Positions 17,137-35,687 of a stretch of DNA of 64,000 nucleotides are shown piece after piece. The translations under genes were made by a program, and so were the position numbers. The notes beneath the pieces are model-generated. The model saw nothing but the letters and a program-made list of their open reading frames with translations, was not told where the DNA came from and searched no databases. Origin of the DNA: an uncultured Planctomycetaceae bacterium (GTDB taxonomy: Bacteria; Planctomycetota; Phycisphaerae; Sedimentisphaerales; UBA12454); assembly GCA_964492875.1 (NCBI GenBank), contig CAZBLD010000002.1, forward strand, positions 5,579 to 69,578, written 5' to 3'. The number at the start of each line of letters is the position of its first letter. Position 1 is the first letter of the stretch.

Positions 17137-17494
17137 TCCCCGATAGCTCAATTGGTAGAGCGAGCGGCTGTAAAATAATGCAGCTCCTGATGGAAACATC
17201 AGGATGAAAAACCGGGTGAATTCAGGGAAGCCTAATTCTGCTGATGCGGAGATGGTAATCCTGAGCCAAGCCTGTTCACACAGGACAAATTAACAAGTGA
17301 GCAGGAAGGTGCAGAGACTACAGGGTGAGGCGGCCTGTGCCAATAAGCTCTGATAAGCGCCCGGCACCTTACACTCGTTTATCCGCCTGTGGCGGACGCA
17401 GGCGAAGGGTATGGTGATGAGATAGTCCGGTCTTCAGGGAAACCTGAAGGAAGCTGTAACCGCTAGGTCGTAGGTTCGAGCCCTACTCGGGGAG
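17137..17494 (+). tRNA. tRNA-Asn(GTT), exons 17137-17171 and 17457-17494, CCA not encoded
   Basis: Joined exons give a 73-nt cloverleaf: TCCCCGA/TCGGGGA acceptor, GCTC/GAGC D stem, AGCGG-CTGTTAA-CCGCT anticodon arm, GTAGG-TTCGAGC-CCTAC T arm, G73. Confidence 0.95.
17172..17456 (+). ncRNA. Group I intron (IC3-like core), 285 nt, no ORF
   Basis: 5' exon ends in U, intron ends in G; P1 GGCUGU/GCAGCU with U-G wobble; P2 and P9 GAAA hairpins; P3 CCGGGUG/CGCCCGG; AATCCTGAGCCAA, GGTGCAGAGACTA and GATAGTCC core motifs. Confidence 0.93.
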
Positions 17495-31534: not shown

Positions 31535-31808
31535 GTTTTTCAACCAAATGCGCAAGAAAAAACTTGCGCGCTTTGGAAAAATTAAAAATTTTTTCTCCAT
31601 ATCTGACAGACACTTACAAATCCAGCATTCAGAATTTTTGACGAAATTTCGTCAAAAACGCGCAAGTTTTTCCTTATATATGAAGGCACATATATAAGGA
31701 AATTCCAGACATCAAAAAACAATAACCAAACAATGGTCAATACCCAATTGGTCATTGGTGATTGGAATTTATTTGGAATTTGTATCTTGGTTATTGGTTA
31801 TTTTCACT

Positions 31809-32387
31809 ATGGAAAAAATTACTTTAACTGTTCCGATTCCGAAAATTATTGCGAACATTGTTTTATGGTTTGTTCTGCGCTACAGAAAAAAACACTACGG
31901 CTTTACATTCAGACGCATAAAACTAACTGGCGGTAAATTCGCTATCGTTGACCCGGAGGATTTCGAAGAGTTGAATGCTTACAAATGGCACGCCGCAAAG
32001 GGTGGTCACACTTTTTACGCCATAAGGTCAATATACAACAAAGGACATATAACTACCGTAAAGATGCACAGGCAGATTATAAACCCGCCTGATGGTCGCG
32101 TAGTTGACCATAAAAATCACGAGGGCCTTGACAATCGAAAGGCGAATTTAAGGCCGGCTACTCGTGCCCAGAACTGTTGGAACAGTATAAATCTGCCTAA
32201 GAAAGACAGTTCCAGATACAGAGGGGTCAGGCGGGATAAGGACGGCGACAAATGGCGTGCTGTTATTTCTGTTAACGGAAAACACGTCCATCTCGGCTAT
32301 TTCACCGATGAAAACGAAGCCGCTAAAGCCTACGATGCCGCCGCCAAAAAATACCGCGGCGAATTTGCCGTTTTAAATTTCGTTTAG
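31809..32387 (+). CDS. Free-standing HNH-AP2 endonuclease
   Basis: VDHKNHEGLDNRKANLR...N (HNH); SRYRGV...W.A.I...LGYF...EAAKAYD (AP2). The track N-terminus from 31755 is translated heptamer repeat. Confidence 0.92.
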   Translation: MEKITLTVPIPKIIANIVLWFVLRYRKKHYGFTFRRIKLTGGKFAIVDPEDFEELNAYKWHAAKGGHTFYAIRSIYNKGHITTVKMHRQIINPPDGRVVDHKNHEGLDNRKANLRPATRAQNCWNSINLPKKDSSRYRGVRRDKDGDKWRAVISVNGKHVHLGYFTDENEAAKAYDAAAKKYRGEFAVLNFV

Positions 32388-32819: not shown

Positions 32820-32950
32820 AGACACTCCTTTTTCATTTATTGCCATATTCCTGTTTATTGACCTGCTTTTCAGCTTCCCTGCTGTTTAACTTGTCTTATT
32901 GTACCACCATTTTTTGAAAATAAAAATTAAAAACTTGCCCCCGCTTTTTA

Positions 32951-33014
32951 TCCGCCTCTGGCGGGCTGGCGGACGCCGCCATTTGTCGCGTCGAAGCCTT
33001 TTGGCGAAGACGGA
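32951..33014. repeat. Cluster of one family B palindrome (tccgcc-N3-ggcgg) and a degenerate family A copy
   Basis: tccgcctctggcgg at 32951; ttgtcgcgtcgaagccttttggcgaagacgga at 32983. Confidence 0.6.
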
Positions 33015-33051
33015 CAACAGCCCCAACGTCCCCTATTATTTACCCTATTAT

Positions 33052-33819
33052 TTAAAATTTACCTTTCACTTGTTTCTGCCACTGACGGAATCGAACTTTA
33101 ACTGCTGAGATATTATCTTTGTCTAGCGGATTCATATGGCAGATTACACATCGTGATCTATACACTTCCTCGACAAACTGTTCGAACCATTCGATATTTG
33201 GGATGATATTCGGAACGACATCCGGCGCAATCCTTCTCATTAACGGAGATAATTGTTTCAGATCTAAGTAATCTATGGGTCGTGCCCCTCTTCTCTGGTG
33301 CCATGAGTGTTTAGTATCATCGGCCATCCTTTCAGCAGCCTGATCCTTTAATCCTTTGGGGGCTTTGGTATCCCACCAATTCGGACCGTACTTTGATTCC
33401 ATGAAAGAGGCAATGACCTCGCGAATTGAGTTTTCAAGAACATACAATAGAGGATAAATGGTTGCCATTTCTCTCGCCTCCCGCAACTTTTCCGCCGAGA
33501 GCACAGGGTCGCTTTCCTTAAACTCCCCAGAGATAATCAAAATCTTGCCTGTCCTAGTAGATTGTGTACCCTTGGACTTAGAGAGTGTTTGCATTGGTGT
33601 TGGCCTGTGTACTTGGCTTAGTACAGTTCTTATATGATTAACTTGTTCAGGCGAAAGATACTTGTCCAGCGGAATGCCCTGTTGGTGGGCTATGACATAA
33701 ACCGCATCATCTGAAATCATCGGATGGTCATTCTTTAGGCGTTTAACACGTTGCGAGAGGGCTTGGGGGGTACATCTTAGTTTCATTAACAATGCTTTCC
33801 GTAAAGCTCTGTTTACCAT
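33052..33819 (-). CDS. Swt1-like HEPN-domain protein with a separate N-terminal helical domain
   Basis: YPLLYVLENSIRE..., YG..WW, DYLDL, RxxxxH (RCVICH) followed by MN. Confidence 0.8.
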   Translation of the reverse strand: MVNRALRKALLMKLRCTPQALSQRVKRLKNDHPMISDDAVYVIAHQQGIPLDKYLSPEQVNHIRTVLSQVHRPTPMQTLSKSKGTQSTRTGKILIISGEFKESDPVLSAEKLREAREMATIYPLLYVLENSIREVIASFMESKYGPNWWDTKAPKGLKDQAAERMADDTKHSWHQRRGARPIDYLDLKQLSPLMRRIAPDVVPNIIPNIEWFEQFVEEVYRSRCVICHMNPLDKDNISAVKVRFRQWQKQVKGKF

Positions 33820-33832
33820 GGTTGTGCAAACA

Positions 33833-34039
33833 CTATTTTAGATTGTTAACAATGCTTTTGATTTTACGTGCCGGAAGCATCCTGCTGGTGTCGCTTTTAT
33901 CCATTTTCAGTGCAATAGATATTTCTTTACCTTTCGCTCCCAACTTATAGAGCAGAGTTACTAATAATCTTTTGATCGCTACCAGCTCCCGTTCAACCGG
34001 ATCGTTCGGTTTTGAATTTGTCTGTTTTCTTTTAGCCAT
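33833..34039 (-). CDS. Small HTH protein (third of three)
   Basis: AAGGAG RBS overlapping the upstream stop; LGAKGKEISIALKMDKSDTSR HTH-like. Confidence 0.7.
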   Translation of the reverse strand: MAKRKQTNSKPNDPVERELVAIKRLLVTLLYKLGAKGKEISIALKMDKSDTSRMLPARKIKSIVNNLK

Positions 34040-34049
34040 ACGAAACTCC

Positions 34050-34349
34050 TTAAAAAAGCATCCAGTTAGCCCCACTCATAATCAATGACGAGAAGGGCAA
34101 TGTCATGGTCATGAGGGAACCAATTATCCTCTTTTTTTTGTGTTTTTTACGCATCGCAGTTAAAGATACTCGGACTGTATTGGGCGTTGTTCCGATTAAC
34201 TCTGCGATTTCTTTAGGTGCCAACCCTGATTTGGATAGCAATTCGATTTTTTCCTGTTGCTTTTTTCCGGCCAAGAGATTGCTTGCAACCAATCTTATTA
34301 ATGTATCAAGTCGTTGGATAACAGGTTGTAACTTTAAATCATTATTCAT
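34050..34349 (-). CDS. Small HTH protein (second of three)
   Basis: KIELLSKSGLAPKEIAELIGTTPNTVRV; ATGA overlap with the upstream gene. Confidence 0.8.
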   Translation of the reverse strand: MNNDLKLQPVIQRLDTLIRLVASNLLAGKKQQEKIELLSKSGLAPKEIAELIGTTPNTVRVSLTAMRKKHKKKRIIGSLMTMTLPFSSLIMSGANWMLF

Positions 34350-34567
34350 TTTCTACTCCTCTTTTTTTGGTGTATAACGGCGGTTATATAGTTAGTTGGT
34401 TTATTGAGAATTTCGCCTATTTCTGCTGGAGATAGGCTTAAGTTAGATAAACGATGTATCTTTTGAGATGTGGATGTTGAATTTTCTGATGACGCAATAT
34501 CACTTATTAGCGAAATTAGGATATTGAGACGTTTTATAATGGTTTTTTGAAGTTTTGTGTCTTCCAT
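34346..34567 (-). CDS. Small HTH protein (first of three)
   Basis: KIHRLSNLSLSPAEIGEILNKPTNYI; aligns with 34050-34349. Confidence 0.75.
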   Translation of the reverse strand: MEDTKLQKTIIKRLNILISLISDIASSENSTSTSQKIHRLSNLSLSPAEIGEILNKPTNYITAVIHQKKRSRK

Positions 34568-34874
34568 AATTGCATTCCTAATTAAATGGAATTCTTAAAT
34601 CCTTTTATATTCATAAGATACGACAATAGCATTAGACAATTATGCTGTCAAGAAAAAATTTTTATGTTTTTTTAGTCTTTTGGTTATTGGCTCGTTCATT
34701 TTTTTGTATCTCCTTGTTATTTATAGCCTTAAACGGCGAAAAGGGCAAAGAATTTTTAGATGTGGGGAATTTTGAATTTTGCGTCTAAATACCCTGCGAC
34801 GACGGTTTTAAGAAAGTTTTAAAGGTGTTACAGGCATATAAATACAAAATGTGTAAAAAAAATTAAAAAATTCC

Positions 34875-34948
34875 TTGCACCAGCTTATTAAATATCGTAT
34901 ATATTATATCAGTGCGGGCGTTGACTGAGTCGATGGCTCGCATTTTTT
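34875..34948 (+). ncRNA. Candidate promoter plus ~38-nt hairpin RNA convergent on the DUF3800 gene
   Basis: TTGCAC (34875-80), TA-rich -10 region (34898-905), 13-bp hairpin 34913-34942, T6 tract. Confidence 0.5.
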
Positions 34949-35687
34949 ATTTCCCGCTTTTGAATTCCCAGACACTAAAGTAATTCGGCTGATGTATTGT
35001 AAAATTACGGGCCAAGCAATCACATTTAACTTTTTCCTTCAGAAAATCACAGACTCTGCTTTTATAAACGTCAAATCTCAAATCTTTTTGCCTTGTTCTT
35101 CTGAAATCCAAAACGATACAGCCGATTAACGCGTCCACCAGTTGAATAAACAAGGAGGCATGAGATTCCAGCATGGTTGCATTAAATACTGAATCGACAG
35201 TTCGTATTTCCGGCTCGTAAAATTTGCTGCATTCTTTCGGTTTCCCAAGGAAATCTGCAATTACACAGATGCGATCTTCAGGTTTTATGTTTTTCTTAAT
35301 CAGCAGCTTCGAGTAACTTATATAAGCATCCCATGTGCTTGGAAATACAGCTTCAACATTTATCTGAGGATTTTGCTTATCCAGAACAAATGAGCAAAAT
35401 TCAAGATTCTTAAATTTAAAATAAAGGTCAATCAGTTCATAATAAAACTCAACCGAAGTTTTTGTGATATTCGTGAATTTAAACTCGAATGAGCCCAGTT
35501 TAGACGGCATACCCCTGTTTTGTCTGGCTAAATCAAGTTTAGATTCGGCCCTATTTTTCAAAATTCTTAATTGCTCTGATAACAAAGATGTATCTTCACA
35601 CTTAAGAAGTCCAAGAGCAAAAAATCGTTGCGTAGGGTCTTTGTATAAAACTCCTGTTTCATCAATAAACCCAAGATAATTTGCCAT
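34947..35687 (-). CDS. DUF3800-family protein
   Basis: N-terminal FIDETG, EFKF, C-terminal SH...IQLVD. Confidence 0.85.
   Translation of the reverse strand: MANYLGFIDETGVLYKDPTQRFFALGLLKCEDTSLLSEQLRILKNRAESKLDLARQNRGMPSKLGSFEFKFTNITKTSVEFYYELIDLYFKFKNLEFCSFVLDKQNPQINVEAVFPSTWDAYISYSKLLIKKNIKPEDRICVIADFLGKPKECSKFYEPEIRTVDSVFNATMLESHASLFIQLVDALIGCIVLDFRRTRQKDLRFDVYKSRVCDFLKEKVKCDCLARNFTIHQPNYFSVWEFKSGK

Follow-up and report, generated by a model that had tools for sequence, protein, structure and literature searches.

The 64,000-nt stretch of contig CAZBLD010000002.1 analysed here, which stems from an uncultured Planctomycetaceae bacterium and is referred to as the window (coordinates are positions within it unless they follow the name of another locus), carries a cassette of four tightly coupled minus-strand genes, g1-g2-g3-g4, spanning 33052-34567 (Table 1). 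The first three encode small helix-turn-helix (HTH) proteins, and g4 encodes a protein with a Swt1-like HEPN domain. The cassette recurs in about a hundred sequences from uncultured bacteria, mainly from sediment and subsurface metagenomes and from metagenome-assembled genomes (MAGs) of Planctomycetota. An earlier note on this DNA, made from its letters alone, had described the genes as tightly coupled, and this is borne out: the g1 TGA and the g2 ATG overlap as ATGA, the g2 stop TAA is fused with the ribosome-binding site of g3 (TAAGGAG), and 13 nt separate g3 from g4. Other starts were offered for two of the genes, namely a longer GTG start for g3 by the open reading frame (ORF) lister and Met12 for g4 in the public gene call; we prefer the ATG of g3 and the 255-aa form of g4 because homologues begin g3 with MAKKK and cover g4 from residue 1. 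Around the g3 stop and the g4 start, 13 nt (TTAACAATGCTTT) are repeated exactly and in the same direction, at 33786-33798 and 33846-33858; only the closest relatives keep this repeat, which probably arose by chance.

Table 1. Position of the cassette genes, of the parts of g4 and of further features within the window.
Feature	Position	Strand	Description
g1	34346-34567	(-)	73 aa; small HTH protein, F1 type; recognition helix KPTNYITAV
g2	34050-34349	(-)	99 aa; small HTH protein, FB type (GLAPKEIAELIGTTPNTVRV)
g3	33833-34039	(-)	68 aa; divergent small HTH protein, F3 type (ELVAIKRLL...SRMLP)
g4	33052-33819	(-)	255 aa; N-domain, linker and Swt1-like HEPN
g4 N-domain	33604-33819	(-)	residues 1-72; four helices, HTH-like start (KL.ITPQALSQRV)
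g4 linker	33496-33603	(-)	residues 73-108; variable, predicted to be disordered
g4 HEPN domain	33052-33495	(-)	residues 109-255; Swt1-like; R223 at 33151-33153, H228 at 33136-33138
Promoter-like site	34623-34651	(-)	TTGACA-17 nt-TATTGT (with TG); about 55 nt upstream of g1; 10/12 matches
Leader motif	34570-34582	(-)	ATTAGGAATGCAA; candidate operator; ends 2 nt before the g1 ATG
HNH-AP2 gene	31755-32387	(+)	HNH + AP2 domain protein, homing-endonuclease-like; borders the variable island; retained but diverged in L101
DUF3800 gene	34947-35687	(-)	380 nt upstream of the cassette; PADLOC PDC-M04A (E 9e-18), phrog_3732

To judge from its sequence, g4 is a Swt1-clade HEPN protein with an intact predicted catalytic Rx4H motif and a separable four-helix N-domain. 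It matches Pfam HEPN_Swt1 (PF18731) at residues 125-251 with 28.0 bits (gathering score 27.5) and the PADLOC profile PDC-M34B at residues 106-251 with an E-value of 6.9e-37; a precomputed PF18731 match is present in most g4 homologues. The motif reads R223-C-V-I-C-H228 in g4, and both R223 and H228 are invariant in 30 full-length homologues (50-83% identity), as are E129-N130-S131-x-R133, the wider block S222-R223-C-V-x-x-H228-M-N-P and the W173-H-Q insert. The AlphaFold2 model, with a predicted local distance difference test score (pLDDT) of 82.5, shows two helical regions, residues 4-71 and the domain 109-254, separated by disorder at 72-108. The C-terminal domain is all-helical with a pLDDT of about 90, and the linker falls below 50 at residues 72-91 and coincides with unconserved, gap-rich alignment columns. 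Model and alignment agree with the N-terminal helical domain, linker and intact RxxxxH HEPN that had been read from the sequence, and g4 is apparently an active HEPN RNase. Comparison of the N-domain with the small HTH families by hhalign gave a probability of at most 53%, at which homology is not demonstrable.

Further loci were collected by a metagenome scan with the g4 family alignment, which yielded 80 loci at 39-73% identity to g4, by a scan of genome contigs with a single protein, which yielded three, and by exact-protein look-ups. One of the three, L003, was spurious, being an oxidoreductase that shares one short peptide. The small HTH proteins, compared across 97 related loci, form one superfamily. 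Alignment relates g1 to g2 (35% identity across 60 residues, E 1e-6), BLASTP of g3 against g1 and g2 gives no match, and iterative searches seeded by g1, g2 or g3 each reach the same ~145 small ORFs. The sub-families F1 (g1-type), FB (g2-type), F3 (g3-type) and FA (a third type) were built separately and compared profile to profile, with probabilities of 97% for F1 and FB (E 4e-11), 98% for F1 and FA, 99.7% for FA and FB, and 94.8% for F3 and FB (E 5.5e-8), the last covering the N-terminal helix and the HTH. The kinship of the three small proteins asserted in the earlier note is upheld by these comparisons. Members of the superfamily are typically 66-92 aa long and consist of an amphipathic N-terminal helix, the HTH and a tail rich in Lys and Arg.

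In searches of PADLOC, Pfam, NCBIfam and PHROGs, g1 and g3 had no match, and g2 had sub-threshold HTH matches only: to Sigma70_r4_2 (E 8.7e-4; 19.3 bits, threshold 25.7), to GerE (14 bits, threshold 23.5) and to an extracytoplasmic function (ECF) sigma profile. Some g2 homologues carry a precomputed PF08281 match and are named CsgD- or NarL-type regulators in their source annotations. The AlphaFold2 model of g2 (mean pLDDT 72.5) has helices at residues 4-26, 31-40, 45-52 and 56-80, and its HTH core superimposes on the LuxR/GerE-type proteins TraR, NarL and DesR at 0.9-1.7 A (probability 0.96-0.98) and matches sigma region 4 of SigD4 with a probability of 0.9; these structure matches span 40-53 residues and have weak global E-values of 0.2-0.9. 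A C-terminal extension of g2 by about 25 aa (34050-34125) is unique to the window, homologues being 66-84 aa long, and is explained by a 1-nt insertion relative to L010 and L011 that puts the ancestral TGA out of frame. In L072, L077, L079, L085 and L092, where the HEPN proteins are only 35-46% identical to g4, F1-type orthologues stand at the head of the arrays, and the FB recognition helix is near-invariant among loci with HEPN proteins that are 40-55% identical.

The association of small HTH genes with the HEPN gene is far above chance. Among the 83 loci with at least 330 nt upstream of the HEPN gene, a small HTH gene of the superfamily lies immediately 5' of it in 75 (90%). The gene that ends at the HEPN start is of FB type in 47 of the 83 loci, of F3 type in 14 and of FA type in another 14; in five it encodes a 116-137-aa winged-HTH protein with an N-terminal helix comparable to that of the small HTH proteins, and two cases are ambiguous. 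The sole locus without an upstream HTH gene is L049 (3038-3802), where the HEPN gene is missing its first ~19 codons, stands behind a 398-aa Fic-like ORF and looks like a decayed copy. Many loci show an overlap of 4-22 nt between the proximal small gene and the start of the HEPN gene. The four genes also co-occur elsewhere, as the earlier note had made a matter for checking: the exact order F1-FB-F3-HEPN is found again in about ten loci (L004, L010, L013, L092/L093 and L097/L098/L100 among them, and L015 with an additional winged-HTH gene inserted), which range over 35-83% g4 identity. The HTH trio, taken there as the defining set, does not hold up in that role. Arrays contain one to four small HTH genes, two being commonest, and the most frequent array is FA-FB-HEPN (14 of the 50 arrays with a visible start); the gene trio is not the conserved unit of the family. 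Two loci have a second, tandem system upstream of the main one (L035, 567-1537; L095, 6786-7503), in which two divergent small HTH genes accompany the gene for a 172-aa protein that is HEPN only, has no N-domain and matches PDC-M34B with an E-value of 7.5e-11.

Both ends of the operon recur in other combinations. A phmmer search with the g4 N-domain alone against 1.84 billion representative proteins returned 87 matches, including full-length g4 relatives and fragments, and the proposed search for alternative effectors sharing this domain had a positive outcome: in four proteins (P0215, P0229, P0230 and P0231) the N-domain is joined to a Hypoth_Ymh HEPN (Pfam E 1e-20 to 1e-29), and in P0221 it is followed by a C-terminal transmembrane helix. 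Conversely, close homologues of g1 and g2 (71% and 74% identical) head operons without a Swt1 HEPN in L090 (2750-6174) and L091 (2757-5686), which contain extra winged-HTH genes and encode a 293-aa protein made of a winged HTH and an unannotated C-domain. L090 further has an F3-type gene (52% identical to g3) directly 5' of the gene for a 428-aa unannotated protein, and in L091 a Ymh HEPN gene stands alone. Neither of the two unannotated proteins encoded downstream in L090 gave a family or solved-structure match, and the downstream proteins of both loci look like candidate alternative effectors. Since an F3-type gene is seen directly before the HEPN gene in 14 loci and before the 428-aa gene in L090, this type tends to precede each downstream larger gene. 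The 97-aa protein 5' of the Ymh gene in L091 was considered as a relative of the N-domain and set aside, the resemblance being weak (probability 40%).

Upstream of g1, the -35 box of the promoter-like site and the spacer element that follows it are kept before g1-type genes in L004, L010, L015, L090, L092 and L097. It is this conservation, and not the promoter scan, that supports the promoter, because the region holds no more promoter-like sites than expected from shuffled sequence. Within the g1 upstream fragment 34560-34660, the leader motif ATTAGGAATGCAA is accompanied by the element TTGTCTAAT. The pattern ATTA[GT]NANNGCAA occurs 14 times on both strands of 483 kb of loci, 12 of these directly before an F1-type gene, including those of L090 and L091. 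In a subset of FA-headed arrays a different pair of elements is conserved: the promoter spacer carries TCCTTACA, and TGTAAGGA lies at the ribosome-binding site. In L092, L025 and L033, spacer and leader elements are reverse complements of each other over 8 nt (shuffle p ~0.003-0.005), and in the window this inverted-repeat relation is gapped only. The conserved spacer and leader motifs would fit operator sites for the head HTH protein.

The cassette is horizontally mobile and sits in strain-variable spots with different housekeeping contexts. In the window it is flanked upstream by the housekeeping genes plsX-fabH-fabD-fabG-acpP-fabF and downstream by class IV aminotransferase, prfB and pabB-like genes. 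The neighbours differ elsewhere: MFS, dtd and parB genes in L004, tyrS in L097 (fabF in the window), an MmeI-type restriction-modification gene and DUF5677 in L092, RyR and MFS genes in L008, recG and argS with adjoining HicAB in L096, an NmeDI-like nuclease gene in L095, and an integrase-bearing element in L006. From plsX as far as the fabF stop codon, the relative L101 runs collinear with the window (85% nucleotide identity), and it is without the window segment 32388-35733; in its place, L101 7137-10596 holds three unrelated genes, for proteins of 62 aa, 148 aa and 627 aa (pentapeptide-repeat), instead of DUF3800, cassette and DUF4870, and the similarity picks up again in the HNH-AP2 gene. 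The absence from L101 at the same site places the cassette within a strain-variable island, and the earlier observation that it interrupts a housekeeping context as an accessory element is confirmed by this comparison and by the varied surroundings. The AT-richness noted with it is true of the 5' half only: the guanine-plus-cytosine (GC) content is 31-37% across g1-g2 and the upstream spacer, 42-45% across g4 and 45-52% in the flanks. The DUF3800 gene is not kept beside the cassette in other loci (L096 has one 8 kb off) and is probably an independent defence-island passenger.

Downstream of g4, a GC-rich spacer of about 165 nt (32886-33051) leads to the DUF4870 gene; a tandem 12-nt repeat, two copies of CCCTATTATTTA at 33031-33054, overlaps the g4 stop there, and no canonical intrinsic terminator was found 3' of g4. 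An Rfam scan found no RNA family in or adjoining the cassette, its only match in the window being a group I intron (RF00028, 93 bits) at 17162-17449 on the plus strand, about 16 kb away. The stretch holding this intron appears to be intergenic, with a Ser/Thr-kinase-like ORF on one side and a 755-aa ORF on the other, and ARAGORN reports no tRNA.

We favour the reading, at a rough probability of 0.55, that the cassette works as a mobile conflict module complete in itself, of the toxin-antitoxin or abortive-infection kind, with the HTH proteins as autoregulators or neutralisers. In its favour count the intact effector domain and the defence roles established for its HEPN clade, the co-occurrence and translational coupling of the small HTH genes with the HEPN gene, the recurrence of one gene order in unrelated contexts, the neighbours of the cassette in other loci, its absence from L101, the modularity of N-domain and head genes, the HTH character of the small proteins, and the promoter and leader motifs that go with the type of head gene. 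The operon would be transcribed from the conserved promoter upstream of g1, and the head HTH protein might autoregulate it via the conserved sites in the promoter spacer and leader. The HTH proteins, above all the effector-proximal g3, would keep the HEPN RNase inactive, probably by contact with its N-domain or else by limiting its synthesis. If the HTH proteins were lost or an invader titrated them away, the HEPN dimer could be freed to cut RNA, which would stop the growth of the infected or plasmid-free cell. Several observations weigh against this picture. The Pfam HEPN_Swt1 score of g4 is marginal, just above its threshold; comparison of the full g4 model with the PDB by Foldseek returned unspecific helical-bundle matches only, none at E<=0.001 and none to a HEPN, and a profile search of PDB sequences with g4 likewise returned no HEPN match, nor any other. 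The one protein that could speak for a contact between the HTH proteins and the N-domain, P0191, in which the two seem fused, looks like a frameshift artefact, since both halves stray from the consensus as frameshifts do, and was discounted. The cassette was not found in the phage and viral-contig collections searched, and the plasmid collection held one distant match only (24% identical, on a cyanobacterial plasmid). As statistical support for a role in defence, the neighbouring HicAB, NmeDI-like nuclease, integrase and DUF3800 genes are anecdotal. A number of small genes that varies from one to four is unusual for a simple antitoxin, and the near-invariant FB recognition helix fits a conserved target better than co-evolving operators.

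A purely transcriptional role of the HTH proteins is as compatible with the data as the heteromeric, RNase-gating complex put forward in the earlier note. The main rival we hold to be possible if doubtful: the small proteins might be transcription factors only, setting timing and level in the manner of C proteins, with the RNase governed post-translationally by a trigger-sensing N-domain and no HTH-RNase complex formed. All small proteins are HTH proteins of the DNA-binding type; promoter and leader motif are conserved according to which type of gene heads the array; the separable N-domain is joined to two HEPN families; and operons whose downstream genes are without this domain have the same g1/g2 pair at their head. 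All of this would sit well with pure controllers. A toxic RNase without an immunity partner would, however, require another safeguard, and the sole HEPN copy without an HTH gene is 5'-truncated. Stoichiometric pairing is suggested by how tightly the proximal small gene is coupled in translation to the effector, and by the F3-type gene that stands before every downstream larger gene of L090. Another reading sees no conflict system here, and g4 would be a housekeeping or regulatory RNA-processing enzyme under local HTH regulators. Although the cassette is found among housekeeping genes in several genomes, its patchy presence, the close relative without it at the same site, a context that is different in every genome, the atypical composition, the tandem duplicated systems of L035 and L095 and the interchangeable fusion partners make this very unlikely.

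The resemblance of the small proteins to sigma factors allows for two further ideas. These sigma-region-4-like paralogues could mimic the part of the host sigma factor that is bound by phage transcription hijackers, so that capturing such a phage protein would release or activate the effector and several paralogues would widen the range of invaders. Sigma-70 region 4 and LuxR HTHs are indeed their nearest fold and profile matches, a near-invariant FB recognition helix is as expected of mimicry of a conserved host surface, and paralogue number varies while effectors are interchangeable; yet the sigma region 4 matches lie under the family thresholds, the conserved operator-like motifs speak for ordinary DNA binding, and the proposal, which has no known phage partner, is purely inferential; we consider it rather unlikely. 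Somewhat broader is the notion that the operons represent an undescribed modular immune architecture, in which an array of paralogous sigma-region-4-like mini-proteins would act as sensor or decoy for invader proteins or DNA, coupled to interchangeable effectors (Swt1-type HEPN, Ymh-type HEPN, a membrane-anchored N-domain protein, and the unannotated 293- and 428-aa proteins), with a dedicated F3-type adaptor before each effector and the four-helix N-domain as docking module. This is unlikely, and it would be highly interesting if true. Finally, the PDC-M34B match of the g4 HEPN domain could make the cassette a member of the PADLOC candidate PDC-M34; this we regard as highly improbable, given that the missing A component and the extra N-domain of g4 rule against membership.

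Few effectors are as common in bacterial immunity and toxin-antitoxin systems as HEPN RNases, and how most of these are silenced and triggered is a puzzle. The conflict module considered most probable here offers a compact, clonable case, with a conserved effector, a new putative regulatory N-domain that recurs on a second HEPN family, a paralogous set of mini-HTH proteins that varies in number, and a head pair that also serves other downstream genes. Should the HTH proteins gate the RNase, they would constitute a new class of partner for HEPN toxins and would add a new family to the tools for detecting defence and toxin-antitoxin systems, which now see only an orphan PDC-M34B domain. The habitats and lineages of the family, that is sediment, subsurface and Planctomycetota MAGs, have poorly charted defence repertoires.

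By sequence comparison the cassette matches no described system, PADLOC recognising its HEPN domain only (as PDC-M34B). The earlier note knew of no named system with this architecture, and none appeared in PADLOC, Pfam, NCBIfam, PHROGs or the literature found, where a search on PDC-M34, Swt1-like HEPN and PF18731 yielded no description of it; its view of the system as unlisted stands for the architecture and has to be amended for the HEPN domain, which is homologous to a component of a PADLOC candidate. That candidate, PDC-M34, is a computational proposal with components A and B for which we found no paper. Its B proteins of ~190 aa correspond to the C-terminal domain of g4, which has the added N-domain and linker, and its partner is the ~205-aa PDC-M34A, whereas the partners in the cassette are one to four small HTH proteins of 60-100 aa. 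A true PDC-M34A was recognised in L002 (5268-5885, E 1.7e-56), and g1, g2, g3 and their neighbours had no match to it at E<=1. In abortive-infection and toxin-antitoxin-like defence, HEPN domains of the Abi2/Swt1 clade serve as RNase effectors (PMC3710099), and PD-T4-5, a distant relative of AbiD/F, defends through abortive infection (PMC9519451). AbiD/AbiF (Abi_2) and PD-T4-5 belong to the same HEPN clade as g4 (PMC3710099, PMC9519451), and RNA cleavage with growth arrest is a likely outcome for g4 too. The PD-T4-5 model matches g4 weakly and locally (E 8.9e-5, residues 118-160), and the Abi_2 profile (PF07751) does not match it at E<=1. These are, unlike the cassette, single-gene systems without HTH partners. 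The 2013 survey of HEPN proteins lists many Swt1/Abi2 and Ymh fusions, but neither the N-domain of g4 nor these operons (PMC3710099).

In its layout the cassette also resembles systems that pair an enzyme with a small partner. HEPN-MNT modules (HepT-MntA) have an MNT nucleotidyltransferase as partner, which the cassette does not, and the NTP-transferase families gave no match to g1-g3. As in these modules and in type II toxin-antitoxin systems with HTH antitoxins, one or several small co-directional genes lie upstream of the gene for a toxic enzyme (a predicted one in the cassette), are translationally coupled to it and are kept with it as a unit; the partner is of the DNA-binding type, the module is mobile and found in varied contexts, and the promoter of the cassette may be autoregulated. 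Both type II and HEPN-MNT systems have a single partner gene, in contrast to the several paralogous ones described here, and the effector differs from theirs in its 255 aa and its own N-domain. The HTH of the cassette is of the sigma-4/LuxR type and not of the Xre, ribbon-helix-helix (RHH) or AbrB type. The C proteins of restriction-modification systems belong to yet another HTH class, and those systems include a modification or immunity enzyme, which the cassette does not; the cassette has up to four HTH paralogues. With them, however, the cassette shares small HTH genes that stand directly 5' of a potentially lethal nuclease gene and are co-transcribed with it, as well as conserved operator-like sites at their own promoter.

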